Source of the DNA: a virus
Lineage: Duplodnaviria; Caudoviricetes
Strand: one strand, 5' to 3'
IMG/VR virus record: IMGVR_UViG_3300027805_000006
Length of the DNA stretch: 64,000 nt
Position 1 is the first letter of the stretch, and each line of letters opens with the position of its first letter. The notes beneath the pieces are model-generated. The model did not search any database. It worked only from the letters and a program-made list of their open reading frames with translations, and was not told where the DNA came from. Positions 21,099-60,024 of the stretch are shown in pieces. Made by a program: the position numbers and the translations under genes.

Positions 21099-21449
21099 AT
21101 GAAGCAATTTGAATGGAAAATTAATCACGTTGAACAAGCGCAGGGAACAATGCTTGTTGAATACACCTACAACGGATCTTCAATGGTCTATAACCTACCA
21201 GTGCCTCCTGCCGACCAGGACATTGCAGAATGGGTCAAGATGTACGCTCCTGTGTCAGAGTGGGAAAGATCTGAAGCGCAGTTGGCTGCAGTTGAAGTTG
21301 GAATGACAGGCTCGCACGTTATTATTTCTCCTACTGCAGGTGTTGCTCCAGCAAGCGAGGTACCTTCTCTTTCAGGTAGCCTGAATGAGGAATACATTCG
21401 CGCCGTTGTTTATTCAGTTCTTGAGGAAATGCGGGAAGCACAGGTGTGA
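21099..21449 (+). CDS. Hypothetical protein (tail-module associated)
   Basis: Late promoter, GGAG SD, and GTGA overlap with the next gene. Confidence 0.75.
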   Translation: MKQFEWKINHVEQAQGTMLVEYTYNGSSMVYNLPVPPADQDIAEWVKMYAPVSEWERSEAQLAAVEVGMTGSHVIISPTAGVAPASEVPSLSGSLNEEYIRAVVYSVLEEMREAQV

Positions 21450-22003: not shown

Positions 22004-22703
22004 GCTGATTTATACGCCACTCGCGTCATATGCTGGGTTGGGAGCAGTAGGCATAGGGGCATATGGTCTAATTTTCTTAGGTGTTTCTCCACTTTGGCTT
22101 TTAGCAACTTTAGTCTTTACATTCGTTATTCTAATGGGTGTAACTGTAGGAATGCATCGCCTATTTTGTCACATGTCATTTAGGACCAATCATTTTTGGG
22201 AATATTTGTTGGCATACGTAGGAACATTGGCTATGTATGGCTCAACTGTACAGTGGTGTGCTATGCACACTTCTCACCATCGATACGCTGATACTGAAAA
22301 AGACCCACACTATACGGGTTGGAGGTATCTTTTCTGGAAGAAAAATAGAAAGACAGAATTCAACAAAAAAGTTCTAGTCAGACTTTATAGACAACCGCTG
22401 CATCGATTTCTTCACCGGTACTATACATTGGTGATCGCTTTAACGTGTCTTTTTCTCTTTATTATTTCACCTTGGGCATTGGTATTTTGCTATCTCATTC
22501 CACTTTTTTGGCTTCACTTCGTTGGTTCATTTCACCAGGTATTTGCGCATGGAAGCAAAGGACCAAGAAACCTTCCGATAATGGAAGCATTGATGTTTAC
22601 TGGTGGTGAGTGGCTTCATAGACAACATCATGACAGCCCAAAATCTATTCGATTTGGGTCTTTAGATGCTGGATTTTTCTTTATAAGACTTATTTCTGTT
22701 TAG
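21966..22703 (+). CDS. Membrane fatty acid desaturase (delta-9-like), copy 1
   Basis: Three His boxes HRLFCH, HTSHHRY and HRQHH, plus hydrophobic TM segments. Confidence 0.85.
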   Translation: MLQRHLDKLFNHRLIYTPLASYAGLGAVGIGAYGLIFLGVSPLWLLATLVFTFVILMGVTVGMHRLFCHMSFRTNHFWEYLLAYVGTLAMYGSTVQWCAMHTSHHRYADTEKDPHYTGWRYLFWKKNRKTEFNKKVLVRLYRQPLHRFLHRYYTLVIALTCLFLFIISPWALVFCYLIPLFWLHFVGSFHQVFAHGSKGPRNLPIMEALMFTGGEWLHRQHHDSPKSIRFGSLDAGFFFIRLISV

Positions 22704-24184
22704 CACTCTAACTGGACTTCATACCCCCAGAGATAATCTACGTAATCGGTTACAATATCCGCATCAAGTAAATTGAGGTCTCTATCCATATATTGTTCAT
22801 ACTTTAGATGAAGCGTGCGGTCACCTTCAAGGTCGGCACCCACCACCTTTATTTGAGGAACATAGTTAATTCTCTCCATAGTACGAGCCAAGGCAATTCG
22901 AATATTTTTATATCCAATTTCATCATGAATTTCTGTAACTAGTGCATAGTCTTCTTCTTCCTCATCTTCATCAGGAGGAGGATCAACCCTAATGCTAAAC
23001 AGCTTCAAGTCACGAATAACTTTAGGTGATAGATATTGCTGAATAAAACTGTCATCTCGATGCTCAAATACTGCTTCCTTTACCACATCTTGCCATCGCC
23101 TACCAATAAGATGAGGCATCCACTCTTTATCTTCATCAGTTGGGTTTTCACAGATGCGCTTTACGTCCTGCAGGATGGCAAAGCCAAGTGCGTAAGGATT
23201 GATACCACTGTAGTGACGTGAATTATAACTTGGCTGATAAATTACACCTGAGTGAAAATCAAGGAACGCCATGAAGGCATCTGGTGATAGAATCCCCTTT
23301 TCTTCCAAGCGCGTCATAATGTAGTAGTGGCAGAATGAGGCATACCCTTCATTCAGGTTCTTTGTCTGCGCCTGTGGGTAAAAATACTGGTTTACCTTGT
23401 AGACAATTCTTAAAATTTCACGCTTCCACTGTTCTAAAGAAGGAGACTTCTTCATAATGAAGTACAGAAGATTTTCCTCTTCCTCCATTTTATCTTCATC
23501 TTCCCTATCAAGCTCAGGGTCGATGGAACTTGTGCGCTTAAGAATAATGTCTAGTTCTTGCTGCCGCTTCTCTTCACGTTCCATTAGCACCTTAAGCCTA
23601 GCCTCTTCACTTAACTTTGGGCGATGCTTGCGCTTAAACTTATCGATGCCGTGAGGTGCCAGTGCGTGTGCTGCATCTAGCACCATTTCAACTTCATCTT
23701 CACCATAACGTTGCTCGCATTGGCGAATATAGTCACGCGCAAAAATCATGTAGTCAATAATTGAACCAGCATTTGTCCATTGTTTGAAGGTCTCGTTATT
23801 ACGAAAAACTGCATTATGCCCAAACGCGGCGTGCGCAATCACCATTGTCTGCTGCAGCATGCTGTTTTCTTCCATAAGATAAGAGATGCAGGGGTCAGAG
23901 TTAATTACAATTTCATATGCTAAACCCATTCGTCCTGTCTGATATGCCTTTTCATTTTTTAGAAATTCTTTTCCAAATGACCAGTGATTATAGTTAATTG
24001 GAAGACCAATAGAAGCATATGCATCCAGCATTTGCTCCGCACTTATGATTTCAATAGCATTAGGATATAAAAGACCTTTTAATTCTAATTCTTCATGCGC
24101 AATTTTTTCGCATTCCATGTAAATTTGCTCAATTAGCGCAGGTGACCAGTCAGTACGGGATGTGATGTAAAGTGGTGTGCTCAT
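22700..24184 (-). CDS. spoVR: SpoVR/YcgB family protein
   Basis: GLPINYNHWSFGK, GLAYEIVINSDPCISYLMEEN, AHAAFGHN, TKNLNEGYASFCHY, INPYALGF. Confidence 0.95.
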   Translation of the reverse strand: MSTPLYITSRTDWSPALIEQIYMECEKIAHEELELKGLLYPNAIEIISAEQMLDAYASIGLPINYNHWSFGKEFLKNEKAYQTGRMGLAYEIVINSDPCISYLMEENSMLQQTMVIAHAAFGHNAVFRNNETFKQWTNAGSIIDYMIFARDYIRQCEQRYGEDEVEMVLDAAHALAPHGIDKFKRKHRPKLSEEARLKVLMEREEKRQQELDIILKRTSSIDPELDREDEDKMEEEENLLYFIMKKSPSLEQWKREILRIVYKVNQYFYPQAQTKNLNEGYASFCHYYIMTRLEEKGILSPDAFMAFLDFHSGVIYQPSYNSRHYSGINPYALGFAILQDVKRICENPTDEDKEWMPHLIGRRWQDVVKEAVFEHRDDSFIQQYLSPKVIRDLKLFSIRVDPPPDEDEEEEDYALVTEIHDEIGYKNIRIALARTMERINYVPQIKVVGADLEGDRTLHLKYEQYMDRDLNLLDADIVTDYVDYLWGYEVQLEC

Positions 24185-24297
24185 GACTTCCTTTGAATTG
24201 ATGGGAATAGACCTACCCCAACTGCTTCTCTAACCTCTTGTTGCCAGTGAAAATCGATTTTATCAAAAAAGGCTTCTGCTAGATAAGTGACATTCAT
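24181..24297 (-). CDS. Small ORF (38 aa, MNVTYLAEAFFDKIDFHWQQEVREAVGVGLFPSIQRKS) filling the yeaH-spoVR gap
   Basis: Read by hand. It has ATGA overlaps with both yeaH (stop) and spoVR (start). Confidence 0.6.
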   Translation of the reverse strand: MNVTYLAEAFFDKIDFHWQQEVREAVGVGLFPSIQRKS

Positions 24298-25658
24298 GCT
24301 GATGCCTTTGGCTTCTTTGCATATATTGAACGGAAGGCGCTAAAGACTGCGCTATCTTCTCCGATCTTGATAGCATGCATCTTTGGATTTGTACGCGAAA
24401 TTGACGTCATTACATTCCAAAGTGAAACTCCAGAGGCGTAGTTAAAGGTACCAGCAATAGACATACCTACCTGTACATAGACAGCATGACGCAGTTTAGC
24501 AATCAGCCCGTTCTCTTCAAGTTCTGCAATTACCTGTGGATTATCAGAGTCCCAGTTATCGCCATCTCCCGCATATGAAAGATAGATATTTGTTTGCTGA
24601 ATATCATATCGTGTCTTAATGATATCGTGCGCAAGTTTAAATGCTGGGGAAACAATGGTACCACCGCTCTTTCGTGTAGTAAAGAAATCCTCTTCAGTCA
24701 TCTCCTCCGCACCATCAGTGTGAGCGATAAAGATAAGATCGGTGTTTGGATATTTCCTCTTGATGAAGGCATACTGCAGTGAAAAGAATTTTCTGGCAAC
24801 TCGCTTCTTATTCTCATCCATAGAGCCGCTAATGTCCATCACCATCACAAGAACCGCGTCAGCCTGCTTTACCTGAATACGCTCGCTCTTTTTGTAGCGA
24901 AGATCAACTTTTTCAAAGAATGGAATAATTGAAATTTTTGACTTTAGTTCTTCAATGCGCTGGATAACATCTTTTCGACGTGCTTCGTAACTTGCGCTTA
25001 TCGGATTTCCAGAAAGAAATTCTTCAATTTTTTCTAGTTCTTTTTCAAGTGCAGCAAGTTCTTCACGGCTTTCGGCGGCGACGGCACGTCGCCGCCCAAT
25101 TGAATTTCTAAATGAGCGAATTACACTAAGTTGAGCAGCATTGCCTTCCTTCTGAAAACCTGCAGGCTTCCATACTGCTTCAGGCAGGTCCTTTTCATTT
25201 GTTTCAAGAAGATCAGGTAGTTCGCAGTCTTCAAAGAAAACATCAAAGAATTCTGAGCGACTAATATTGACAATAAAATCATCTTCGCCATCTTCGCCAG
25301 GTCCGGAACCATTTCCTCTGCCACCTCTGCCACCACCACTTCGGTCAATAATAAACTTATCACCTCTTTCCCAACGGTCATTTCCAATGAGTATGCTTTC
25401 GTAGTTTCCAGTTGATGAATCGTAGCGGAAGGTAGGCTCATGAAGTGCGTCCTTCGCAATCTTCACCGGATTGATAAACGACTTAGAGGAAGATTGACCT
25501 CCAGCCGCCTTTACTCCTCCAGCATCGATATCTACTGGCTTTGATTGACGAATACTATCTTTAATCCGTGCCAGTAATTTAGAACGATTATTAAGTGACT
25601 TGCCTCTGCTAGTTTTGCGTCTATCAACGAAAATGAAAGTCGTTGACGGTAAAGTCAT
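24294..25658 (-). CDS. yeaH: YeaH/YhbH (DUF444) vWA-domain protein
   Basis: FVDRR..SRGKSL.N, MDISGSM MIDAS motif, FFTTRKSGGTIVS, YAGDGDNW. Confidence 0.92.
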   Translation of the reverse strand: MTLPSTTFIFVDRRKTSRGKSLNNRSKLLARIKDSIRQSKPVDIDAGGVKAAGGQSSSKSFINPVKIAKDALHEPTFRYDSSTGNYESILIGNDRWERGDKFIIDRSGGGRGGRGNGSGPGEDGEDDFIVNISRSEFFDVFFEDCELPDLLETNEKDLPEAVWKPAGFQKEGNAAQLSVIRSFRNSIGRRRAVAAESREELAALEKELEKIEEFLSGNPISASYEARRKDVIQRIEELKSKISIIPFFEKVDLRYKKSERIQVKQADAVLVMVMDISGSMDENKKRVARKFFSLQYAFIKRKYPNTDLIFIAHTDGAEEMTEEDFFTTRKSGGTIVSPAFKLAHDIIKTRYDIQQTNIYLSYAGDGDNWDSDNPQVIAELEENGLIAKLRHAVYVQVGMSIAGTFNYASGVSLWNVMTSISRTNPKMHAIKIGEDSAVFSAFRSIYAKKPKASA

Positions 25659-25659
25659 A

Positions 25660-25863
25660 TTAGCCCCTTAGAAATAGAAGCGTATAGAAAATGCCAGTAG
25701 CGCAAAACCAAGTGTATCCTACTGACCAAATGGCAAGTGAATTTCCAAACATAAAAGGAATCCAACCAAAAGTTGCCAATAGAAAAGCATATGCCTTGCC
25801 TCTGTTGCTCAGACCATCTAGCCAAGAATAAAACTTGCTTGTGATATTAGATAAAATCTTCAT
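25660..25863 (-). CDS. Small membrane protein inserted between prkA and yeaH
   Basis: 67 aa with two hydrophobic segments and a GGAGG SD. Confidence 0.7.
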   Translation of the reverse strand: MKILSNITSKFYSWLDGLSNRGKAYAFLLATFGWIPFMFGNSLAIWSVGYTWFCATGIFYTLLFLRG

Positions 25864-25884
25864 ATTCAGTCCTCCAGAATGTTA

Positions 25885-27843
25885 CTAGGCCGCCTTCCTA
25901 TTGTTAGTAAACCAAGCAACTAGAATCTTTGTCTGATTTTCAGTATACCCCTTTTCAAGCATTCGCTCAACGAAACCGCGGTGTTTTTCTTCTGTGTCCT
26001 TGTCCTGCTTAGGTCCAAATGCAATGACTGGCATAATCTGCTCAGTGGCGCTAAACATGCGCTTTTCAATTACGGTCTTGATTTTTTCGTATTGGTCCCA
26101 AGATGGTGACTTGCCTTCGTTCTTTGCCTTGTAGCGCAGAACGTAATGAACGATTTCATTGCGGAAGTCCTTGGCATTTACAATACCAGCCGCCTTTTCA
26201 ATCTCTTCCAACTTCTTATTGAGATTTTCACGGTCAAGTAAAGTATGGGTCTCAGGGTCACGACATTGTTCGTCAGCCAACCAAGCCTCGGCGAACAAAA
26301 CATAGCGTTCAAACATATTCTGACCAAATGAGCGATAACTTTCAAGGTAGGCTGTGCGCAGTTCCTTTTCAAGGAACTCAAAGTAGCGTGGCTGGAGGTG
26401 TGACTTGATGAAGTCAAGGTACTCATCAGTCGTTTCCTTTGGAAGATTTTCCTTCTTCACGCTCTCCTCAAGCACGTACATTAGATCAATAGGGTTTGCC
26501 TGCTGTTCCTCTGGGCGTAGGTCATAGGTTGCAGAAAGAACCTTGAAGGCGAAGCGGGTAGACATTCCCTTCATTCCCTCGTCATTCCCAGCGGCATCGC
26601 GATACTCTTCGTATGGCTTTGCATTGGGCATGGTGTCCTTTACGTTATCACCGTTATAAACGCGAAGTTTGGCGTAGATGGTACTGTTTTCTGGCTTCTT
26701 TAGGCGGGTAAGAATGCTCCACTGTGCCAGCATCTTAAGTGTTCCAGGTGCACATGGTGCAGTTGCGAGAGAACTTACCTTAAGCATCTTTTCGTAGATA
26801 AGAATTTCTTCAATAGTTCGCAAGCAGTATGGTACATCGACAATGTAAACCCGGTCAAGGAATGCTTCGTTAGTTTTGTTGTTGCGGAAATTGAACCACT
26901 CGCTTTCATTTGAGTGAGCCATAATAATTCCGGTATAAGGCATAGAAGGAATGGCTTCAGTGCCGTTATAGTTGTGTTCCTGTGTAGCCATTAGCAATGG
27001 GTTGAGCGTCTTGATATTTGCCTTAAACATTTCAGCAAAATCCATCAAACCCTGATTAGTGCGGTTGAGACCACCACTGTATGAATACGCGTATGGGTGA
27101 TTCTGAGGAAATTTTTCCAATTTACGAATATCAATCTTTCCAACTAGAACTGAAACGTCCTGGTTGTTTTCATCGCCTGGCTCAACCTTCATCACGCCGA
27201 TTTGGCTGTCCTTATTTGGATAAACCTTAATTACCTTAAAGCGGGTAATATCACCGTCAAATTCCTTCAATTTTTCCTGAGCCCACCCACTCATTACCGT
27301 ATTAAGGTAGCGCTGTGGAATTCCATATTCCTTCTCAAGCATTTCTCCGTGCTCAAACTGGTTGAATAGCCCTAGAGGGCTATCAAGAACAGGAGACATC
27401 CGCTTTTCTACATCATTTTCTTGTGCATCATAAAGAACATAGATTGGAAACTTCTGCATCAAAGCCTTTAGGCGCTCTGCAAGAGATGACTTACCACCAC
27501 CTACTGGTCCCTTTAGATACAGAATTTGCTTGCTCTCTTCTAGTCCTGCTGCACTATTTCGGAAGTATGCTGCAATTCGCTCAATTGCATCTTCTGCTCC
27601 GTAAAAATCAGCAAATGAACGATATAGACGAATTTTCTTGTTTGAGTGAATTCTTGAAAGACGAGCGTCTTCACTCGTATCAATAATTTCAGGCTGGCCG
27701 ATTGCAGCAACCATTCTCTCTGCTGCAGTTGCATAGGTCATTTTATCCTGCTTACACCTGTCTAGAAACTGTTCCAGCGAAATAATTTCTGGCTGGGCAA
27801 ATTTACTAGCAAATGAGGCGGAAAGAGATGAGAGAGCAGTCAT
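25885..27843 (-). CDS. prkA: PrkA/YeaG family serine kinase / AAA+ ATPase
   Basis: ILYLKGPVGGGKSS Walker A, EPGDENNQDVS.LVGK.DIRKLE, YSGGLNR.NQGLM.F.EMFKA, LAHSNESEW-like segment. Confidence 0.95.
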   Translation of the reverse strand: MTALSSLSASFASKFAQPEIISLEQFLDRCKQDKMTYATAAERMVAAIGQPEIIDTSEDARLSRIHSNKKIRLYRSFADFYGAEDAIERIAAYFRNSAAGLEESKQILYLKGPVGGGKSSLAERLKALMQKFPIYVLYDAQENDVEKRMSPVLDSPLGLFNQFEHGEMLEKEYGIPQRYLNTVMSGWAQEKLKEFDGDITRFKVIKVYPNKDSQIGVMKVEPGDENNQDVSVLVGKIDIRKLEKFPQNHPYAYSYSGGLNRTNQGLMDFAEMFKANIKTLNPLLMATQEHNYNGTEAIPSMPYTGIIMAHSNESEWFNFRNNKTNEAFLDRVYIVDVPYCLRTIEEILIYEKMLKVSSLATAPCAPGTLKMLAQWSILTRLKKPENSTIYAKLRVYNGDNVKDTMPNAKPYEEYRDAAGNDEGMKGMSTRFAFKVLSATYDLRPEEQQANPIDLMYVLEESVKKENLPKETTDEYLDFIKSHLQPRYFEFLEKELRTAYLESYRSFGQNMFERYVLFAEAWLADEQCRDPETHTLLDRENLNKKLEEIEKAAGIVNAKDFRNEIVHYVLRYKAKNEGKSPSWDQYEKIKTVIEKRMFSATEQIMPVIAFGPKQDKDTEEKHRGFVERMLEKGYTENQTKILVAWFTNNRKAA

Positions 27844-27883: not shown

Positions 27884-27921
27884 CGGCTATTTTGGTGTAT
27901 TTTTTACAATTTTGCAAAAAA

Positions 27922-35896: not shown

Positions 35897-35947
35897 AAGA
35901 AATTCTACATTCCTTATTTACCCGGCACAAAAATACATTTCAACAGG

Positions 35948-46828: not shown

Positions 46829-46963
46829 TTTAATGCTACCTTTCAGCGTGCGGTTAATTATGGGTTTATTCCATATTTTGAAAGCACCTTTAAAAGGCGG
46901 CTGGTGTCTAGATCGCTTGAATTCTTTTTTCAAGAGTTTTTACGTAGTCGTAAAAGATGCTCT

Positions 46964-47008
46964 TTTAAAGTATTATTTAAAGTATTATTTAAAGTATTAT
47001 TTAAAGTA
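46964..47008. repeat. 12-bp tandem repeat TTTAAAGTATTA x3.75, intergenic
   Basis: Units start at 46964, 46976, 46988 and 47000. Confidence 0.9.
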
Positions 47009-47010
47009 CT

Positions 47011-47829
47011 TCACTTATTTTCATCTAAAACACAAAGATGATTTAGTATATTTATTACTTTGCTATCATTTGCAATGGTATAGCGAGGCTTAAATGTACC
47101 CAGTTGAACTGAAATATGAACAGAAGTTAGTTGATGATCCTCTACTTCTCGGTTTAAAGGATTAATTTTAGATAGTTCAATTGCTACCTTGCGGTATCGT
47201 GAAACGTTTGATGGGCAAAGATAGTTGGCATTGGTATCTACGATTGCGGCTGCAAACTTGCGTGCCAACTGCTTATCAAGTGAAACAATCAGGTGTGAAA
47301 CAATAACACTTGGGGAACTTGACTTGCCAACCTCTGGAGAAACAATTAGACGTATGTTAAGACACATTGTTGTAAGTGCCATACCTGTCACCGGTGTTGA
47401 AATTTTCCAAGATACGCTAAGGTCACGAGAATTTGTTTTCCCGTCCGGGAGTGGGAAAACCGATTGAATTAGTTGCTCAGCAACATTTCCCTTTTCAATA
47501 TGCTTATGTAGAATAATTACTTCTCTGCCTGCGTCAATTAGTTGTTCAAGTTCAGTTGCAACTTCCTTCAAAAACCACTTTGTTCGGGTTTCAAGAGGAA
47601 TAAGTCTATTCTTTTCTAACCGCCCTCCGCCGCGCGGTACTATTTCTCCGCCGTGCCAGATTGCTTTCTTGTTGTTTGGATATGGTTGCATCTGAAAGAA
47701 ATTATCAATGATGACACTTGCCTTAAAGGTCAAGTCATACTTCTTAGCTGCGAGAGTCTTAAAGTACTGAAGAAAGCGATTGCCCTCAAGAAGAGGTGCT
47801 TCTTTGTCAGTGAGTGTTTTTGCTAGCAT
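47011..47829 (-). CDS. Hypothetical protein
   Basis: 272-aa ORF with AGGGTGA SD-like sequence; no recognised motif. Confidence 0.7.
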   Translation of the reverse strand: MLAKTLTDKEAPLLEGNRFLQYFKTLAAKKYDLTFKASVIIDNFFQMQPYPNNKKAIWHGGEIVPRGGGRLEKNRLIPLETRTKWFLKEVATELEQLIDAGREVIILHKHIEKGNVAEQLIQSVFPLPDGKTNSRDLSVSWKISTPVTGMALTTMCLNIRLIVSPEVGKSSSPSVIVSHLIVSLDKQLARKFAAAIVDTNANYLCPSNVSRYRKVAIELSKINPLNREVEDHQLTSVHISVQLGTFKPRYTIANDSKVINILNHLCVLDENK

Positions 47830-47844
47830 ATCACCCTTCTAAGC

Positions 47845-47872
47845 AAGTACTGGGCCATTTGGCCCAGTACTT
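47845..47872. terminator. 12-bp perfect hairpin AAGTACTGGGCC-ATTT-GGCCCAGTACTT
   Basis: Just downstream of the lipoprotein gene; weak U-tract. Confidence 0.55.
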
Positions 47873-52609: not shown

Positions 52610-53144
52610 TTTTGATTGCTAGAAAACGAATATCTGTTTTGGCACTTTCACGTGAAGAAGACTTTGAATAGATCGGGAGATCACTTTCAATTGCATCTTC
52701 TTCAACGCTATACTCTACTAAACTAACGCTGGAAAGATTTTTAAAGTCTTGTGCCCAAACGTTGAAAAGTTTCTTCTTTAGAAAGTTTTTCCAAAGTGCC
52801 TGTGAATATTGAGTGTGCAGATTTCCAGAGGCAAGCAGGATGCCATCATCATTAATTGCTGCCTTGTAAAGTTGCTTTGCTAGACCTTTTCCACGATGCT
52901 CGGGGAAAGTCCAAATTTGATAGACTTCCCAAGCCTTCCAGTTTGGCTTTCGATAAAGATATAGCCAAGAAATTGGCTCTTTGTTTTCATCAAGAACGAA
53001 ATAGATCTTATAACTCTTTCCCGAGTTTATAAGTTGAACTTTATTCTTTAACTTGATTGATTTTAACCGTTTAATTCGGTTGCAAACATAATGGTACATT
53101 GACGTCCAATGAGGACGAGTAACTGCATTTCTTAATACTAGCAT
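52590..53144 (-). CDS. GNAT-family acetyltransferase-like protein
   Basis: IWTFPEHRGKGLAKQLY acetyl-CoA motif A. Confidence 0.75.
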   Translation of the reverse strand: MLVLRNAVTRPHWTSMYHYVCNRIKRLKSIKLKNKVQLINSGKSYKIYFVLDENKEPISWLYLYRKPNWKAWEVYQIWTFPEHRGKGLAKQLYKAAINDDGILLASGNLHTQYSQALWKNFLKKKLFNVWAQDFKNLSSVSLVEYSVEEDAIESDLPIYSKSSSRESAKTDIRFLAIKNVSNRN

Positions 53145-53152
53145 TTCTCAAT

Positions 53153-53173
53153 GGGAGGGGATTATCCCCTCCC
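53153..53173. terminator. Hairpin GGGAGGGGA-TTA-TCCCCTCCC after hsp20
   Basis: 9-bp perfect stem; no U-tract. Confidence 0.45.
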
Positions 53174-53187
53174 GTGTGTTTAAAGCC

Positions 53188-53634
53188 TTACTTGACTGAA
53201 ATCAGAAGAGGCTTATCCTCTTCACGTTCAACCACCTCAAGCGCAATAGACAAAAGCCCATCTTGCATTTCTGCTGATTTTACCACAACATTGTCTGCTA
53301 CAGTAAAGTTTCGGATGAATGAGCGCTTCGCAATTCCAATTCTTACGAGTTCACGACCATCAGGCTGCGGATAGTCTTCTTGACTACCTTCGGAAGAAAT
53401 TGATAGAACATTATTCTTACGATCATGGGAGATCTTAATGTCTTCCTTTCGATAACCTGCAAGAGCTATTTCGATGGTATATCCATCCTTTTCCTTGAAT
53501 AGGTTAAATGGAGGAAATCCATTTACTTGGTGCGTGGAATGGTTGGTTTCAAGCAGCCTTTCAATATCGCTGAAAAGGCGGTCAAAACCTAGGAAAGAAG
53601 TTTCAAGGGGCTTGTAAAAAGCAACACGGTTCAT
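53188..53634 (-). CDS. Small heat-shock protein Hsp20 (IbpA-like; start revised to MNRVAF)
   Basis: FLGFDRLF, FPPFNL, IEIALAGY, GIAKRSF.R.F, A.M.DGLL.I.L. Confidence 0.92.
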   Translation of the reverse strand: MNRVAFYKPLETSFLGFDRLFSDIERLLETNHSTHQVNGFPPFNLFKEKDGYTIEIALAGYRKEDIKISHDRKNNVLSISSEGSQEDYPQPDGRELVRIGIAKRSFIRNFTVADNVVVKSAEMQDGLLSIALEVVEREEDKPLLISVK

Positions 53635-53717
53635 AGTCATCTCCTTCAATAGAAGCAAGTTGATAAAAAGGGTTCCTAACGGCAACCCACTAAATTGAAG
53701 ACCCGTATGGCATCTTC
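53635..53717 (-). promoter_or_regulatory. ROSE-like RNA thermometer in the hsp20 5' UTR
   Basis: Hairpin I GAAGATGCC-ATAC-GGGTCTTC, hairpin II GGGTTGCC-GTTA-GGAACCC, hairpin III CTTGCTTCTATTGAAGGAG with the UUGCU motif opposite the AGGA SD. Confidence 0.7.
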
Positions 53718-53729
53718 AAATCTTATATA

Positions 53730-53933
53730 TTAATTTTCAGAAAATTCCTGCATCCACTTTTCAGGATATTCACCAGTATCAATAAACTTTACCTCTTCTT
53801 CTGTGAGGTCTGGGGCAAGTTTGGCTAAGTCTGCTCCCATGTTCCATGCAGCGAGTTGCTGCCGAGTCACGGCTATTTCCCGTGCATTTATGCTACCAGT
53901 TTTTAAGCAGCGTCTAATAACTTTCATGAGCAT
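53730..53933 (-). CDS. Conserved-type small phage protein
   Basis: R....TG......VT..QL..W..G.....P.LT.EE..FI.TG...E.W pattern, recalled from phage proteins. Confidence 0.65.
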   Translation of the reverse strand: MLMKVIRRCLKTGSINAREIAVTRQQLAAWNMGADLAKLAPDLTEEEVKFIDTGEYPEKWMQEFSEN

Positions 53934-53939
53934 CTTTCA

Positions 53940-54356
53940 TCAATTTCTACGACGAGTCGCACCGCTTTGGATATCCTTTAACGCTTCTTCAGTAATAAGT
54001 TGCGACCCACCTTTATTATATAGCGGCGCCGATATGAACTTACGATCTCGTGCCCGCAATTCGCGCTCAAGCATCTCAGGATTTTCACGATAGGTATGTT
54101 CAGGTCTAATAACAGACTTTGTACCACCGCCCTTGAATGCATCAAATGATTTCTTGATAAATGCACTTGATACCCCTGCCGAAGATGTTGTCTTTTCAGG
54201 CGCCTTCACTACTTTGGTACGATTCTTGCTGCTAAAATTGGTACTCATGGAGTTTATATTATTAAGCCACTGCTGATATTCTTGTGCCTTCTTTTGCCAA
54301 CCTGGCTTGTTCTTTGTTTTAGAGCGTTGATGTGTGTAAATGATAGCCATATTCAC
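53940..54356 (-). CDS. Hypothetical basic phage protein
   Basis: APLYNKGG motif, GAGGTG SD and an upstream promoter. Confidence 0.7.
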   Translation of the reverse strand: MNMAIIYTHQRSKTKNKPGWQKKAQEYQQWLNNINSMSTNFSSKNRTKVVKAPEKTTSSAGVSSAFIKKSFDAFKGGGTKSVIRPEHTYRENPEMLERELRARDRKFISAPLYNKGGSQLITEEALKDIQSGATRRRN

Positions 54357-54368
54357 CTCGTAGATGAA

Positions 54369-54397
54369 ATAATAACCTTTTTAGGCTCGAGAGTACA
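54369..54397 (-). promoter_or_regulatory. Sigma70-like promoter TGTACT-17-TATTAT
   Basis: Same GTGTAC -35 variant as at 57570 and 59899. Confidence 0.55.
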
Positions 54398-54500
54398 CCG
54401 TCAAATACAGGTTAGATGTATGGATTGTTCTTCTTAACAATCTTCCAGAAGCAAAAAAACACTGCTGGAAGTAAAACTAGAATAAACAGAAAAAATGCAA

Positions 54501-55538
54501 TCATCTAATTATTAGATATGCTATTACAAGAACACACAATACTTCAGCCAGAAAGTAGATAAACTTCTTATTTTTTACGGCAGTATCAAATAATGTATTT
54601 TGCACCGGCTCAGGCTCTTCAGGTGGTGGAGATACGTCATCACTTATCTGTGCGGGAGCAGTGGATGGTGCAGACCATGTTCCAGGCGCAGGTGCTTCTG
54701 TTAGAGTACCTGCGTTAAACCCCCATGGCTTCAAGAATGATTGGTCATATAGTGAAGGATGTCCATCAAGTTGAGGACGCTGTGTAAAACCGTTCGCAGC
54801 CATAAACTTATTCATATATGTTGCAACATCACGATAAGAAGAAAGACCAAGAGATAGGGACTTTAACAGTGAATATGTAGCGGCGCCCTGAAACTGGTTA
54901 TTAATGAATGCATCTGCTGATGTTTGGTGTGACTGGCAACCAGAGATTAGAAGAGCAGAACGATTTACGTCGCGTGATGTCTTAAATTCTCTGACTTGCA
55001 GTTTATTTTCTGTAATTTCAGTTTGGATGTATTCTGGCATTGGAAGAAATCGATTTCCCTGCTTTTGACTAGATTCAACAAGCGGCGCAGTAATTTCACG
55101 CGTTAACTCAAGAGAATCTTCTTGATCTAGTGCATTTCCGGAGTGGCAGCAATCTAGGACAACTGTAACGTTTACTCCATTTGGCACTTTATTAAATACC
55201 TGCTTCATGTAATCGTCTGTCACTACATTATCACGCCAATCTAAGTCAATAGGACAGATAATTTCGTCCAGACCGTCTGGCTCTACTGTTGAGCGCATTT
55301 GGGATCCATGACCAGAGAAGTGGAAAAAAATAACATCTCCCGGAATAGCACCTGTTACGAGCCATTCAAGACCCCTCTTGATTCCAGCAGCAGTTGCATC
55401 CTTTTCTAGGATGACTTTAATTTCATCAAAACCTTCTTTTGATAGAAGATTTTGTACATTATTCACGTCATTTATGCAACCACGCAGATCATTTCCAGTG
55501 CCTGCATAGTTTATTCCAACCAAAAGTGCCTTTTTCAT
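54501..55538 (-). CDS. Metacaspase (Peptidase C14) with C-terminal transmembrane anchor
   Basis: KKALLVGINY...LRGCIND, FHFSGHG (His), LDCCHSG (Cys), SGCQSHQTSAD, PQL. Ends FIYFLAEVLCVLVIAYLIIR. Confidence 0.92.
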   Translation of the reverse strand: MKKALLVGINYAGTGNDLRGCINDVNNVQNLLSKEGFDEIKVILEKDATAAGIKRGLEWLVTGAIPGDVIFFHFSGHGSQMRSTVEPDGLDEIICPIDLDWRDNVVTDDYMKQVFNKVPNGVNVTVVLDCCHSGNALDQEDSLELTREITAPLVESSQKQGNRFLPMPEYIQTEITENKLQVREFKTSRDVNRSALLISGCQSHQTSADAFINNQFQGAATYSLLKSLSLGLSSYRDVATYMNKFMAANGFTQRPQLDGHPSLYDQSFLKPWGFNAGTLTEAPAPGTWSAPSTAPAQISDDVSPPPEEPEPVQNTLFDTAVKNKKFIYFLAEVLCVLVIAYLIIR

Positions 55539-55540
55539 TT

Positions 55541-55596
55541 TCTGTCTCCAGCATATTCAACCTGCTTTATTTACAGGTTGAGTGACCGGAGACAGA
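55541..55596 (-). promoter_or_regulatory. RBS-occluding nested hairpin with late promoter TAAATA in its loop (metacaspase leader)
   Basis: TCTGTCTCC/GGAGACAGA outer stem (9 bp, covers SD GGAG), TCAACCTG/CAGGTTGA inner stem (8 bp), loop TAAATAAAG. Confidence 0.8.
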
Positions 55597-55625
55597 TTAA
55601 ATGTTTGGCACTCTATTGGATTATG

Positions 55626-55820
55626 TTACGTGCCTTCAGCCTCTTTCTGCTTCTTGTTGCCTCGCATAAATGCTCCGTAAGTTGTAAATTTCTGCCACCA
55701 AGCATTCTTCTTTTCATGCTTAGGTGTGGTCTTTGCTGGACCAGCACCTCCGCCTTGACGCATCTTGGACATTTCCTTCCGGCGGGCGATGTTGCGGGCA
55801 TTCTTTGATTGGCGTGACAT
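55626..55820 (-). CDS. Small basic protein
   Basis: MSRQSKNARNIARRK...KKNAWWQKF; AAAGGA SD. Confidence 0.7.
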   Translation of the reverse strand: MSRQSKNARNIARRKEMSKMRQGGGAGPAKTTPKHEKKNAWWQKFTTYGAFMRGNKKQKEAEGT

Positions 55821-55843
55821 ATAGTTCCTTTCTATTACGGGTG

Positions 55844-56956
55844 TTAAACATTAACTTGATTGACTAGAATATGCTTGATTGTGCTCAAGCGATACTTATT
55901 GATTTTCTTTTTTATTTTTTCACCATCATCATTATCAACTAGTTCTCGTGGAACTGATTGAAGCGCAGAATTTATTTGCTTAAGGGTGGTGCTGCTCACA
56001 CACATACTATTACCAGCAAGTTCTTGAATCTTTACCAGCATAATTAATTCACCTAGGTGATAGTTTTTATGCTCAAATGCTCTAGCAGATGAGAGTACAT
56101 TCAGTAGTTTGACAGGAGTAATTTTCTTTGCATCCTTCAGTTTGCAGAAGGCAGAATGAAGATTCTTAGATGCAAATGTGTGCAGACTCTTTGAGTCTTC
56201 TGGACAAATAGACATGGTAAAATAAATTACCTTTGATGATTCCATGTAATATTCACATACTTGATTTACGGCGCTTGCAACATCAACAAGACGAAGAATA
56301 TCACTCTTCTTTTTAATAAGACCAGAGAAAAACTTTGAGTGCGAAAAAACACCAAGATCCTTTAAACACTTGATAAAAATATTGAAATTAGGCTCTTCAA
56401 CAGTTTTTGCAAGTATTAGCCAGAAGCGAACATACTGAAGTTCGTCAAGCATCTTTTGCTTTACCATCTTTTTACACAACTTGAAAGTTTTTGTATGGAT
56501 AGTAAAACCAAATTGGCTAAGTCTAGCATACAGATTCGCCACACGAATTACACGCAGGGCATCTTCTGAAAAAGCACTAGACGTGTGGCGTAGCACTTTG
56601 TCTTCAATGTCTCTCTTACCGCCAAATGGATCAATGACTTCACCTGTAGAGAGGTCTTTAGCCATGCTATTGATAGTTAAATCTCTGCGTCTAAGGTCAT
56701 CAACGAGTGAAATTTTTGAATCAGCATCTACAGTAAATCCAGAATATCCTTTTCCAGATTTTACCTCAGTACGTGCGAGAGCATACTGCTCATATGTTTC
56801 TGGGTGAATAAAAATTGGAAATGAAAGACCTACCTTTTCAAATCCTTGTGCTAGCATTTCTTCTTCTGAAGAACCTACAACTACGTAGTCTCTATCCTTC
56901 GGCTCAATGCCAAGAATTTCGTCTCTTACTGCCCCGCCGACCAAATAAATCTGCAT
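55844..56956 (-). CDS. cca: tRNA nucleotidyltransferase (CCA-adding enzyme, class II, no HD domain)
   Basis: YLVGGAVRD.....PKDRDYVV, ALARTE..SGKGY.GF, DL.RRDLTINSMA, DPFGG..D, FSEDALRVIR. Confidence 0.92.
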   Translation of the reverse strand: MQIYLVGGAVRDEILGIEPKDRDYVVVGSSEEEMLAQGFEKVGLSFPIFIHPETYEQYALARTEVKSGKGYSGFTVDADSKISLVDDLRRRDLTINSMAKDLSTGEVIDPFGGKRDIEDKVLRHTSSAFSEDALRVIRVANLYARLSQFGFTIHTKTFKLCKKMVKQKMLDELQYVRFWLILAKTVEEPNFNIFIKCLKDLGVFSHSKFFSGLIKKKSDILRLVDVASAVNQVCEYYMESSKVIYFTMSICPEDSKSLHTFASKNLHSAFCKLKDAKKITPVKLLNVLSSARAFEHKNYHLGELIMLVKIQELAGNSMCVSSTTLKQINSALQSVPRELVDNDDGEKIKKKINKYRLSTIKHILVNQVNV

Positions 56957-56961
56957 TCAGA

Positions 56962-57360
56962 TTACCATGCCAGCAGTTGTTGTACATCCACATTGAATGA
57001 AATATAGTCCTTACCCTGCAAACTCAATTTTGCATTTGTGAGTGTATCCTTGGCAATTTCTTGTTCCTTTAGCAACTGCTCTATGTTAATCTGCAGGTTC
57101 ATGTCAGTGATGGCATGTCCTGTTACTTCAGAATTATAGTTGTCTAGAAAAATTCTAAAGACCGCTATAATTTCACAAGCATCATCGCTAAAAGCCTCAA
57201 ACTCAAGGTCATAGCACGTGATCCTGCATGTAATGGGATAAACGCACTGACCGTACTTTCCATTGCCATCCTCACCAAAAAAGGTAAGTGACTTGCCATA
57301 AAACGCCCTGTCTAGCAGTACTAGACATTCATCCTTGACGTAATCAGCAGTTCCCTTCAT
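56962..57360 (-). CDS. Hypothetical protein (start revised to MKGTADY)
   Basis: ATGA overlap with the upstream small ORF. Confidence 0.65.
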   Translation of the reverse strand: MKGTADYVKDECLVLLDRAFYGKSLTFFGEDGNGKYGQCVYPITCRITCYDLEFEAFSDDACEIIAVFRIFLDNYNSEVTGHAITDMNLQINIEQLLKEQEIAKDTLTNAKLSLQGKDYISFNVDVQQLLAW

Positions 57361-57512
57361 CGGAACATCTCTTCCCCGGCTTCTTTCCAACGCACCTGAG
57401 CCAACTTGCGCTTTCGCGTATCCCGCTTGTCATGCTCTCCTGCTTTCCTAAGCATAGAAGGAACAACAAAAGGGTTACGCGGCTTACGAGTACGAACAGT
57501 AATCTTTTCCAT
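57357..57512 (-). CDS. Small basic protein (51 aa, MEKITVRTRKPRNPFVVPSMLRKAGEHDKRDTRKRKLAQVRWKEAGEEMFR)
   Basis: Read by hand; first ORF after the 57548-57575 promoter. Confidence 0.65.
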   Translation of the reverse strand: MEKITVRTRKPRNPFVVPSMLRKAGEHDKRDTRKRKLAQVRWKEAGEEMFR

Positions 57513-57547
57513 TTTAGAAAGTCACAGAAAGTTGTTTAGATGATGGT

Positions 57548-57600
57548 ATTATACACTGCGGCTGGTAAATGTACACTAAAAGTGTGTTATAAATGTAACA
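57548..57600 (-). promoter_or_regulatory. Sigma70-like promoter TGTACA-16-TATAAT with upstream TGTTAC-N4-ATAACA site
   Basis: -10 at 57553-48, -35 at 57575-70, motif at 57585-57600. Confidence 0.6.
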
Positions 57601-57808
57601 GTTCAGGAGAAATATCTACATCTATTTCCCACCGTGTATTTTCCATATCAAGGTTAACGCTTTTAATTTTGGCGCCGGGATACTTTTTAGAAACAAAATT
57701 TACTATTCTGCTCTTCTCAGTTGGCACCATTACTAGTTGTTTTTCTAGCAGCAAATGGTCGGCAATAATTTCTTCCTGCTCAATTGAGCATTCCAAAAAC
57801 TGCATCAT
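57587..57808 (-). CDS. Hypothetical protein
   Basis: ORF coupled by ATGA overlap. Confidence 0.6.
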   Translation of the reverse strand: MMQFLECSIEQEEIIADHLLLEKQLVMVPTEKSRIVNFVSKKYPGAKIKSVNLDMENTRWEIDVDISPELLHL

Positions 57809-58038
57809 AGTTTATTTTGGTCCCTCAAAATCTGTATCTTGTCATAGATTGAAAGTAGATCTCTTGATGCCTGATTTACTTGAGAAACTTGTGACACGAC
57901 TGGAATATGACCTAAGTCCCTAAAATCTTCTAGAAGTGAATTCAAGTCAATTATGCTTTTCTGCATTTTGCCTAAGGTCTTTGCAAACTTGTCATCAAGT
58001 TGAATTCCGCGGTGTAGTTTCTTATCTCTTTCATCCAT
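57805..58038 (-). CDS. Hypothetical coiled-coil protein
   Basis: ORF within the operon. Confidence 0.6.
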   Translation of the reverse strand: MDERDKKLHRGIQLDDKFAKTLGKMQKSIIDLNSLLEDFRDLGHIPVVSQVSQVNQASRDLLSIYDKIQILRDQNKL

Positions 58039-58040
58039 TT

Positions 58041-58412
58041 TTATTCTCCGTCTGAAATACTATTTATTTTGCAGGATCGCGTCAGGCACTTTCCGCCACT
58101 TAGAACTACAAAGTTACTCGTATAAATTGGTTCTCCGTCTAACATAAAACAATTATTCTTGTAAGGATTATACTTTACTTCGGTGAGTGGCTGACCAGAA
58201 ATATCAATATCTGCCTTCAATACGTCACGTGCAACTGCAAATGCATGCACATTTTTTACATTTTCAGAAATTACACGTTGCCTTCCCTTTTCATTTACCA
58301 CAAATTTCACACCGAAAAGGACAGCTTCCTGTACTCGGTCAATTACTTTTCCTCGATACCTAACACTAAATCCCTTTGTTCTTAGATTTCTATATATGAA
58401 ATAGTTTGCCAT
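58041..58412 (-). CDS. Conserved-type hypothetical phage protein
   Basis: YRNL....FSVR...KV......KF.V...GRQRV....KNVHAF pattern. Confidence 0.7.
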   Translation of the reverse strand: MANYFIYRNLRTKGFSVRYRGKVIDRVQEAVLFGVKFVVNEKGRQRVISENVKNVHAFAVARDVLKADIDISGQPLTEVKYNPYKNNCFMLDGEPIYTSNFVVLSGGKCLTRSCKINSISDGE

Positions 58413-59949: not shown

Positions 59950-60024
59950 TACTAAGTAACATTTATGTTACTTTTACTAAGTAACATTTATGTTACTTTT
60001 ACTAAGTAACATTTATGTTACTTT
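59950..60024. repeat. Three exact 25-bp tandem repeats, each holding the palindrome AAGTAACAT-TT-ATGTTACTT
   Basis: Unit TACTAAGTAACATTTATGTTACTTT at 59950, 59975 and 60000. Confidence 0.95.

Follow-up and report, generated by a model that had tools for sequence, protein, structure and literature searches.

The metacaspase gene of this phage DNA is preceded by a two-tier hairpin (minus strand, 55541–55596), in which the GGAG of the gene is buried and a TAAATA box is held in the apical loop. The whole 64,000-nucleotide stretch that was analysed is referred to here as the window. The arrangement is probably a promoter-gated translational switch of the type described for T4 gene e, soc and I-TevI. 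As a regulatory device it belongs to the textbook biology of T4. Its novelty lies in the cargo, a phage-encoded metacaspase, and in how widely the gate is conserved: dozens of lineages of uncultured giant phages have it as a portable cassette of promoter and hairpin.

In the proposed mechanism, RNA entering from upstream would carry both arms of the 21-bp, two-tier hairpin together with an outer extension. Hairpin and extension would lock the Shine-Dalgarno sequence (SD) and the AUG, and no protease would be translated from read-through RNA, which could come from the operon of the CCA-adding enzyme, possibly from a sigma70-like promoter at 57575–57548 and from a further TAAATA that lies upstream, at 58066. 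The gene's own promoter box, TAAATA at 55573–55568 in the apical loop, would most likely be read by the host RNA polymerase with a gp55-type late sigma. Transcripts begun a few nucleotides downstream, near 55562, would be without both 5′ arms; their 24-nt leader would be unstructured, its GGAG-N7-AUG accessible, and they would be translated. Here, we infer promoter activity, the position of the transcription start site (TSS), late timing and the effect on translation from the sequence and its predicted folding.

The leader hairpin and the ribosome site

The metacaspase gene occupies 54501–55538 on the minus strand and encodes a protein of 345 amino acids (aa), with a His/Cys dyad, a Pro/Ala-rich linker and a hydrophobic C-terminal helix. 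The open reading frame (ORF) matches the Pfam family PF00656 (Peptidase_C14) at 6.5e-35 and, among solved structures (PDB), yeast Yca1 and plant MC4 at 1e-34. The catalytic dyad, H77 with C130/C131, is invariant in 30 metacaspase homologues.

Read 5′ to 3′ on the minus strand, the predicted hairpin begins with an outer 5′ arm of 12 nt (55585–55596), which lies upstream of the promoter box and is therefore carried only by RNA begun further upstream. A spacer between the two 5′ arms (55584–55582) leads into the inner 5′ arm of 9 nt (55573–55581), the final base of which is the first T of TAAATA. This is followed by an apical loop of 7 nt (55572–55566), which together with the last inner pair spells the TAAATA box (55568–55573; context CTGTAAATA), a candidate gp55-type late promoter core. 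The predicted +1 is downstream of the box, near 55562. The inner 3′ arm of 9 nt (55557–55565) pairs with 55581–55573 and, after the 3′ side of an internal loop (55556–55553), the outer 3′ arm (55541–55552) contains the SD, GGAG, at 55549–55546. The metacaspase ATG (55538–55536) comes 7 nt after the GGAG.

When a 65-nt leader segment was folded with ViennaRNA, the 12 + 9 bp structure had a free energy of -33.3 kcal/mol (z = -10.1), and none of 200 dinucleotide shuffles was equally stable. In a 106-nt context the helix extends further: a distal 5′ extension (55597–55619, minus strand) is predicted to pair with 55520–55540, where CAUUU meets the AAAUG that contains the start codon and GAGUGCC pairs with codons 3–5; over the whole extension, the AUG and codons 3–6 are base-paired. 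The fold that includes this extension has a free energy of -47.7 kcal/mol, again with z = -10.1. The initial annotation had proposed a T4-style early/late switch at this leader, and its letters for minus strand 55536–55600 match the sequence exactly. It had also described the SD as buried in a 9-bp stem with TAAATA in the loop. The SD is buried and the box does occupy the apical loop plus the last inner pair (55573–55568); the stem, in turn, is stronger than described, as it comprises 12 + 9 bp plus the outer extension rather than 9 bp.

The hairpin has no second copy within the 64-kb window, and an exact-pattern scan of metagenome contigs for the inner hairpin gave no match. In Rfam 15, no family reached its gathering score at this site; the hits were miRNA-precursor look-alikes at 18–22 bits, against gathering scores of 97–108.

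To express how far a ribosome site is covered, the opening energy was used, which is the ensemble free energy needed to unpair positions -13 to +3 of a gene start (the translation initiation region, TIR). Read-through RNA was modelled from at least 45 nt upstream of the box and own-promoter RNA from 6 nt after it (55562). For the metacaspase TIR the opening energy is 23.5 kcal/mol in read-through RNA versus 4.3 kcal/mol in own-promoter RNA, so that in these folding calculations the ribosome-binding site (RBS) is strongly occluded only when the RNA includes the upstream arm, as the T4-style model proposes. Among the other 16 TAAATA-associated genes of the window, the difference between the two RNAs ranges from -1.0 to 5.6 kcal/mol. 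In addition, the metacaspase start is the most occluded of the 68 testable starts in the window, for which the median is 5.6 and the runner-up 12.7 kcal/mol. A 5′ end placed anywhere downstream of 55587 leaves the metacaspase TIR open, at 3.6–5.2 kcal/mol, and the inference of a switch is therefore independent of the exact TSS. The predicted own-promoter transcript, from 55562 onward, folds at -4.1 kcal/mol with z = 0.1 and has no significant structure.

Metacaspase leaders in related phages

A protein search returned thousands of metacaspase homologues, many of them on contigs of 130–390 kb. At the DNA level, a search of phage GenBank records with the locus gave no match, and a tblastn search of phage records with the metacaspase gave one distant match, to an unannotated huge phage. 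In IMG/VR, relatives were found with an alignment-based scan; a single-sequence scan gave none.

In 34 distinct metacaspase leaders, TAAATA lies 20–37 nt before the ATG, at protein identities that go down to ~40%. The two-tier hairpin itself is kept in the two relatives L001 (77% protein identity) and L002 (73%), in which the inner 5′ arm (55573–55581 in the window) has no changes. Across the window, L001 and L002, all 63 of 63 pair cells are paired, with three compensatory pairs in the outer stem and several conserved G-U pairs, the latter fitting RNA of the minus strand only. The CAUUU/AAAUG pairing of the extension is also present in L001. A further relative, L108 (65%), retains the two-tier design in another form: GUCUCC/GGAGAC covers the SD and a different inner stem surrounds TAAATA. 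In L002, an aldolase gene stands between the 64-aa ORF and the metacaspase gene, and the hairpin stays beside the metacaspase. Because box-bearing hairpin and protease gene remain together at this locus, the hairpin belongs to the metacaspase gene.

Most of the 34 leaders have a different, co-varying hairpin, in which bases at or upstream of the predicted start site mask the SD or the AUG. At loci of 40–58% identity, the 5′ arm begins inside or just after TAAATA, and the 3′ arm either reaches into the AUG or masks the SD. Eight distant loci share an 11-bp hairpin that runs from inside TAAATA to the AUG and is 95.5% paired. Five of its 11 pairs show compensatory changes (12 cells), and the covariation score was reached by none of 500 shuffles. 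In distant loci with T4-like spacing, at least 3–5 nt from box to start, the TIR opens too.

In the 34 TAAATA leaders, the TIR opens at a median cost of 11.7 kcal/mol in read-through RNA and 3.2 kcal/mol in own-promoter RNA. The occlusion was matched by none of 100 upstream-shuffled controls in 20 of the 34 leaders, and by at most 5 of 100 in 26 of them. AT-rich metacaspase leaders that lack TAAATA (leader GC 0.41 or below) are mostly little occluded, at 0.4–9.9 kcal/mol. To judge from these alignments and folds, selection has kept the relation among the promoter box, an arm that precedes or spans the start site, and the masked ribosome site, and no particular sequence. The T4-style design proposed for the window is thus found again, with compensatory changes and altered architectures, in dozens of related metacaspase loci. 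This makes for unusually clear evolutionary evidence, as arm sequences and architecture vary and the 5′ arm is always at or upstream of the predicted start site.

The gate extends to other genes. In G001, a complete, terminally redundant relative of 385 kb, promoter-gated RBS occlusion (>8 kcal/mol) is predicted for 7 of the 49 TAAATA-associated genes, including a gp25 homologue and a DUF7487 protein; among others, the gated genes lie at L098:7466–7885, L094:9418–10149 and L093:2080–2832. By these predictions, promoter-gated occlusion is used repeatedly in this clade. T4 gene 25 is known to have a conserved stem at its TIR (PMC3014915).

TAAATA as a putative late promoter core

Within the window, 15 of the 38 TAAATA copies lie 12–60 nt upstream of called gene starts in the sense orientation, where ~1 is expected (p 1.3e-14). 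TAAATA is the most enriched of all upstream hexamers, the next independent hexamer being near 1e-3, and ~18 copies are found 21–53 nt ahead of an SD and ATG. The box precedes tail-fibre-like genes at 2096, 11023 and 17769, as well as a tail-fibre or structural gene at 21099. The preceding base is mostly A, and is G or C in seven cases that include PrkA. The metacaspase box is of the GTAAATA form, most other sites being ATAAATA; further G-variants stand at promoter-like distances before PrkA (27883) and at 35920 and 43879. The full T4 octamer, TATAAATA, shows no enrichment in the 64 kb, with 2 copies versus 3.4 expected. This shortage was considered as an argument against T4-type promoters and was dropped, as the shorter TAAATA core carries the signal.

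Relatives with larger genomes give the same picture. TAAATA is the top upstream hexamer of G001 (60/251, p 3e-30), with GATAAATA as its preferred form, and it precedes the gp25 baseplate homologue of that genome. A homologue of gp55 (phrog_234) was detected in G001 at 3e-19 and in a second relative, G005, at 2e-28; gp45 was found in G005 only, with none detected in G001. The gp55-like protein of G001, used as a query in a protein search, has thousands of relatives. The longest contig listed for a metacaspase homologue and the longest listed for a gp55-like homologue are the same, at 388,165 bp, and therefore one contig probably carries both genes. Taken at the level of sequence, the enrichment, the position ahead of structural genes and the gp55-type sigma of the relatives all favor the view that TAAATA acts as a promoter core, as the T4-style model holds, and it is very probably the gp55-type late promoter core of this clade. 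For the window's own genome we infer gp55 from the homologues in these relatives. Only 12 of the 69 window proteins have a match in G001. The window is an accessory region, and clade membership thus rests on the metacaspase cassette and the shared promoter motif. (N)TAAATA is accordingly available as a supported late-promoter core for the annotation of this uncultured phage clade.

A separate occurrence of the motif was observed at 46968–47008 (minus strand), where three tandem copies of a 12-nt unit with TAAATA in it (TTTAAATAATAC) precede a gene that starts near 46933. From its sequence, the array may act as three promoter boxes in a row or as a regulatory repeat.

Similar boxes have been described in other phages. 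In the jumbo phage CBB, an ATAAATA late motif is found before structural genes, together with a gp55-like sigma (PMC5259590), and the late promoter motif of T4-like cyanophages is NATAAATA (PMC2984593). The present clade resembles CBB/GAP32 and S-PM2/Syn9 in having a short A/T box related to TATAAATA upstream of structural genes and a gp55-like sigma. Those reports concern promoters only; the coupling of such a box to an RBS-masking hairpin is what distinguishes the present case.

The closest parallel to the coupled arrangement is found in T4. In the account of gene e given in PMC3014915, which draws on McPheeters et al. (1986), transcripts initiated upstream fold into a hairpin that sequesters the RBS. 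According to the same account, one or more late promoters lie in the DNA encoding the 5′ part of this structure, and late transcripts lack the 5′ strand and are translated. Hairpin control of e and of I-TevI is treated together there (PMC3014915), and homing-endonuclease leaders with TATAAATA inside hairpins have been reported (PMC2677866). As in gene e, upstream RNA is here predicted to mask the RBS, a late-type box lies within the structure and the cargo is possibly harmful if made early. Unlike in gene e, the box is TAAATA with a preceding G rather than TATAAATA; its place is the apical loop of the inner hairpin, and the two-tier, 21-bp helix to which this hairpin belongs is much more stable. 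The cargo also differs, being a metacaspase of an uncultured ~330-kb phage in which the switch is predicted from sequence and folding. The leaders of the td-intron endonuclease I-TevI of T4 and of the Aeh1 mobE/fractured-gene endonuclease likewise have a late promoter element inside an RBS-sequestering hairpin that limits translation to late transcripts from the gene's own promoter and is conserved among relatives (PMC3014915; PMC2677866; PMC2988022). Whereas these endonucleases are selfish elements lodged in essential genes, the protease gated here is an accessory protein that is conserved, and its promoter-hairpin cassette has been carried with it into different gene neighbourhoods.

Read-through RNA, rival explanations and the role of the protease

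Upstream of the metacaspase gene and on the same strand lie a 64-aa ORF (55626–55820), which is conserved in L001 and L002, and the gene for the CCA-adding enzyme (tRNA nucleotidyltransferase; 55844–56956), part of an upstream operon that would read through into the hairpin. A candidate sigma70-like promoter at 57548–57575 (minus strand; TGTACA-16-TATAAT, 10/12), a consensus match only, could supply such read-through RNA, and a terminator scan found no terminator-like site on the minus strand between this candidate and the metacaspase gene. Sigma70-like matches are not enriched in the window, and another TAAATA is present upstream, at 58066. With a box at this position, some of the read-through RNA may itself be late, and the device may serve to insulate the gene rather than to separate early from late. 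Of the proposed early/late switch, gating by the gene's own promoter is supported at the level of sequence and folding and the assignment of read-through RNA to an early class is not, given the unenriched sigma70-like matches and the TAAATA at 58066. The device may be better called insulation from all read-through than a pure early/late switch, and 'translated only from its own promoter' is a safer wording than 'early/late'.

The locus occurs in one freshwater metatranscriptome (run X1), in which half of the sampled words of 54400–57600 were found. Contigs from this run are identical to Hsp20, the metacaspase gene and the 64-aa ORF (window 53000–58000). They cover the metacaspase body (54502–55535), the 64-aa ORF (55637–55835) and, at the highest depth, Hsp20; they leave uncovered the leader (55536–55636) and most of the CCA-enzyme gene (55839–56506). 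With a depth of 2–4 and frequent holes, these contigs cannot define transcript ends. The coverage is compatible with a separate metacaspase transcript and was counted as evidence neither way. The phage was apparently active in the sample.

Several other explanations of the hairpin were weighed. The gene could be silent in all transcripts until a nuclease cuts the hairpin or a protein or helicase opens it, TAAATA being incidental. The obvious nuclease would be RNase III acting on the 21-bp bulged helix, for which the lambda N leader and the T7 early mRNAs provide precedents. Indeed, a helix of 12 + 9 bp with a 3 x 4 internal loop, or ~38 bp when the extension is included, resembles RNase III substrates in size and shape. 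Such processing is nevertheless unlikely to be the answer: most relatives keep TAAATA and the occlusion with hairpins of just 7–11 bp, a length below what RNase III needs; TAAATA is strongly promoter-like across the genome; and cleavage of the loop alone would leave the arms paired. The dependence on promoter activity could be challenged from another side, by supposing that TAAATA is no promoter here, being a non-consensus G-variant or a site for an RNase or regulator, and that the protease is made at a constant low level from read-through RNA. The G at -1 in place of the commoner A speaks for this supposition. It is improbable all the same, as the G-variants before PrkA (27883), 35920 and 43879 lie at promoter-like distances and the box is kept in metacaspase leaders where all flanking sequence has diverged.

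Translational coupling, in which ribosomes ending the upstream ORF would melt the hairpin and tie metacaspase translation to the upstream gene, finds some encouragement in the many distant relatives that have an upstream stop 3–8 nt before TAAATA, close to the 5′ arm. In the window, however, the stop of the 64-aa ORF (55626–55628) is 30 nt before the main stem, and a ribosome terminating there would get no further than the weak outer extension. The gene upstream also changes from locus to locus (the 64-aa ORF, the aldolase gene or a 118-aa gene that is conserved), and through these changes the metacaspase keeps its box and hairpin. The conservation of TAAATA would be left unexplained; coupling thus appears very unlikely. 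The chance is just as slight that the structure has no role in translation and is instead a terminator, insulator or RNA-stability element of the upstream operon, or a palindrome at the DNA level, bound by a protein or forming a cruciform. In favour of this are the stability of the inverted repeat, its intergenic position and the folding of its plus-strand RNA (-28.7 kcal/mol). Against a terminator, an intrinsic-terminator U-tract after the hairpin is absent on either strand (AAAAUGAAAAAGG follows it) and the terminator scan made no call here. Against a DNA palindrome, the conserved G-U pairs work only in RNA of the minus strand, which folds better than that of the plus strand. Whatever the arm sequence, moreover, the 3′ arm in the relatives is always the SD and/or the AUG. 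All of these explanations are less coherent with the data than the promoter-gated switch.

The presence of such a switch bears on what the protease does. That a mistimed metacaspase is costly to the phage is suggested indirectly by the conserved insulation of the gene from read-through. The further proposal of the initial annotation, by which the protease would be toxic or timed for lysis or morphogenesis, is a reasonable one. The conserved gate offers a concrete starting point for working out what caspase-like proteases do in phages. More speculatively, the strict and deeply conserved gate might mark the membrane-anchored metacaspase as a late-acting executioner in an abundant, uncultured clade of freshwater giant phages. 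At the end of infection it would kill or lyse the host, or destroy a protein of host defence, and its earlier production would harm the phage. This is a tentative proposal, and it is doubtful that it will hold as stated. Such an executioner may act jointly with the co-conserved downstream protein of 134–138 aa and Hsp20. If the proposal were true, the lytic cycle would include caspase-type proteolysis as a step timed by the phage, and such proteolysis would be more than an effector of host defence.

On the 3′ side of the metacaspase gene are a 138-aa ORF and Hsp20. No TAAATA was found upstream of the 138-aa ORF, and because of this the ORF, Hsp20 and the protease may form one late operon. The order metacaspase, (small ORF), basic protein of 134–138 aa and Hsp20 (53188–54356 in the window) is kept in L002–L004, down to 57% identity. 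In L003, a gene of the NUMOD3 type, which is homing-endonuclease-like, lies directly upstream of the metacaspase cassette in the opposite orientation (L003:2060–2536).

Elsewhere in the window there are tail-fibre-like genes and a PrkA/YeaH/SpoVR-like operon of a kind known otherwise from jumbo and huge phages. This operon (PrkA/YeaG, YeaH and SpoVR-like) is intact at 22700–27843 on the minus strand, with a GTAAATA box ahead of it at 27884, and its closest phage matches are Enterobacter phage LAU1, huge metagenomic phages and Ralstonia phage RsoM2USA. Two further repeats were noted. A perfect 13-bp inverted repeat with a 2-nt spacer (AAGTACTGGGCCA / TGGCCCAGTACTT) occupies 47845–47872, between genes ending at 47829 and 47887. 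At 59954–60023, a 20-nt near-palindrome (AAGTAACATTTATGTTACTT) is present in three tandem copies with a period of 25 nt, between two genes, convergent or divergent, at 59959 and 60018; judged by sequence, this looks like an operator or protein-binding array.
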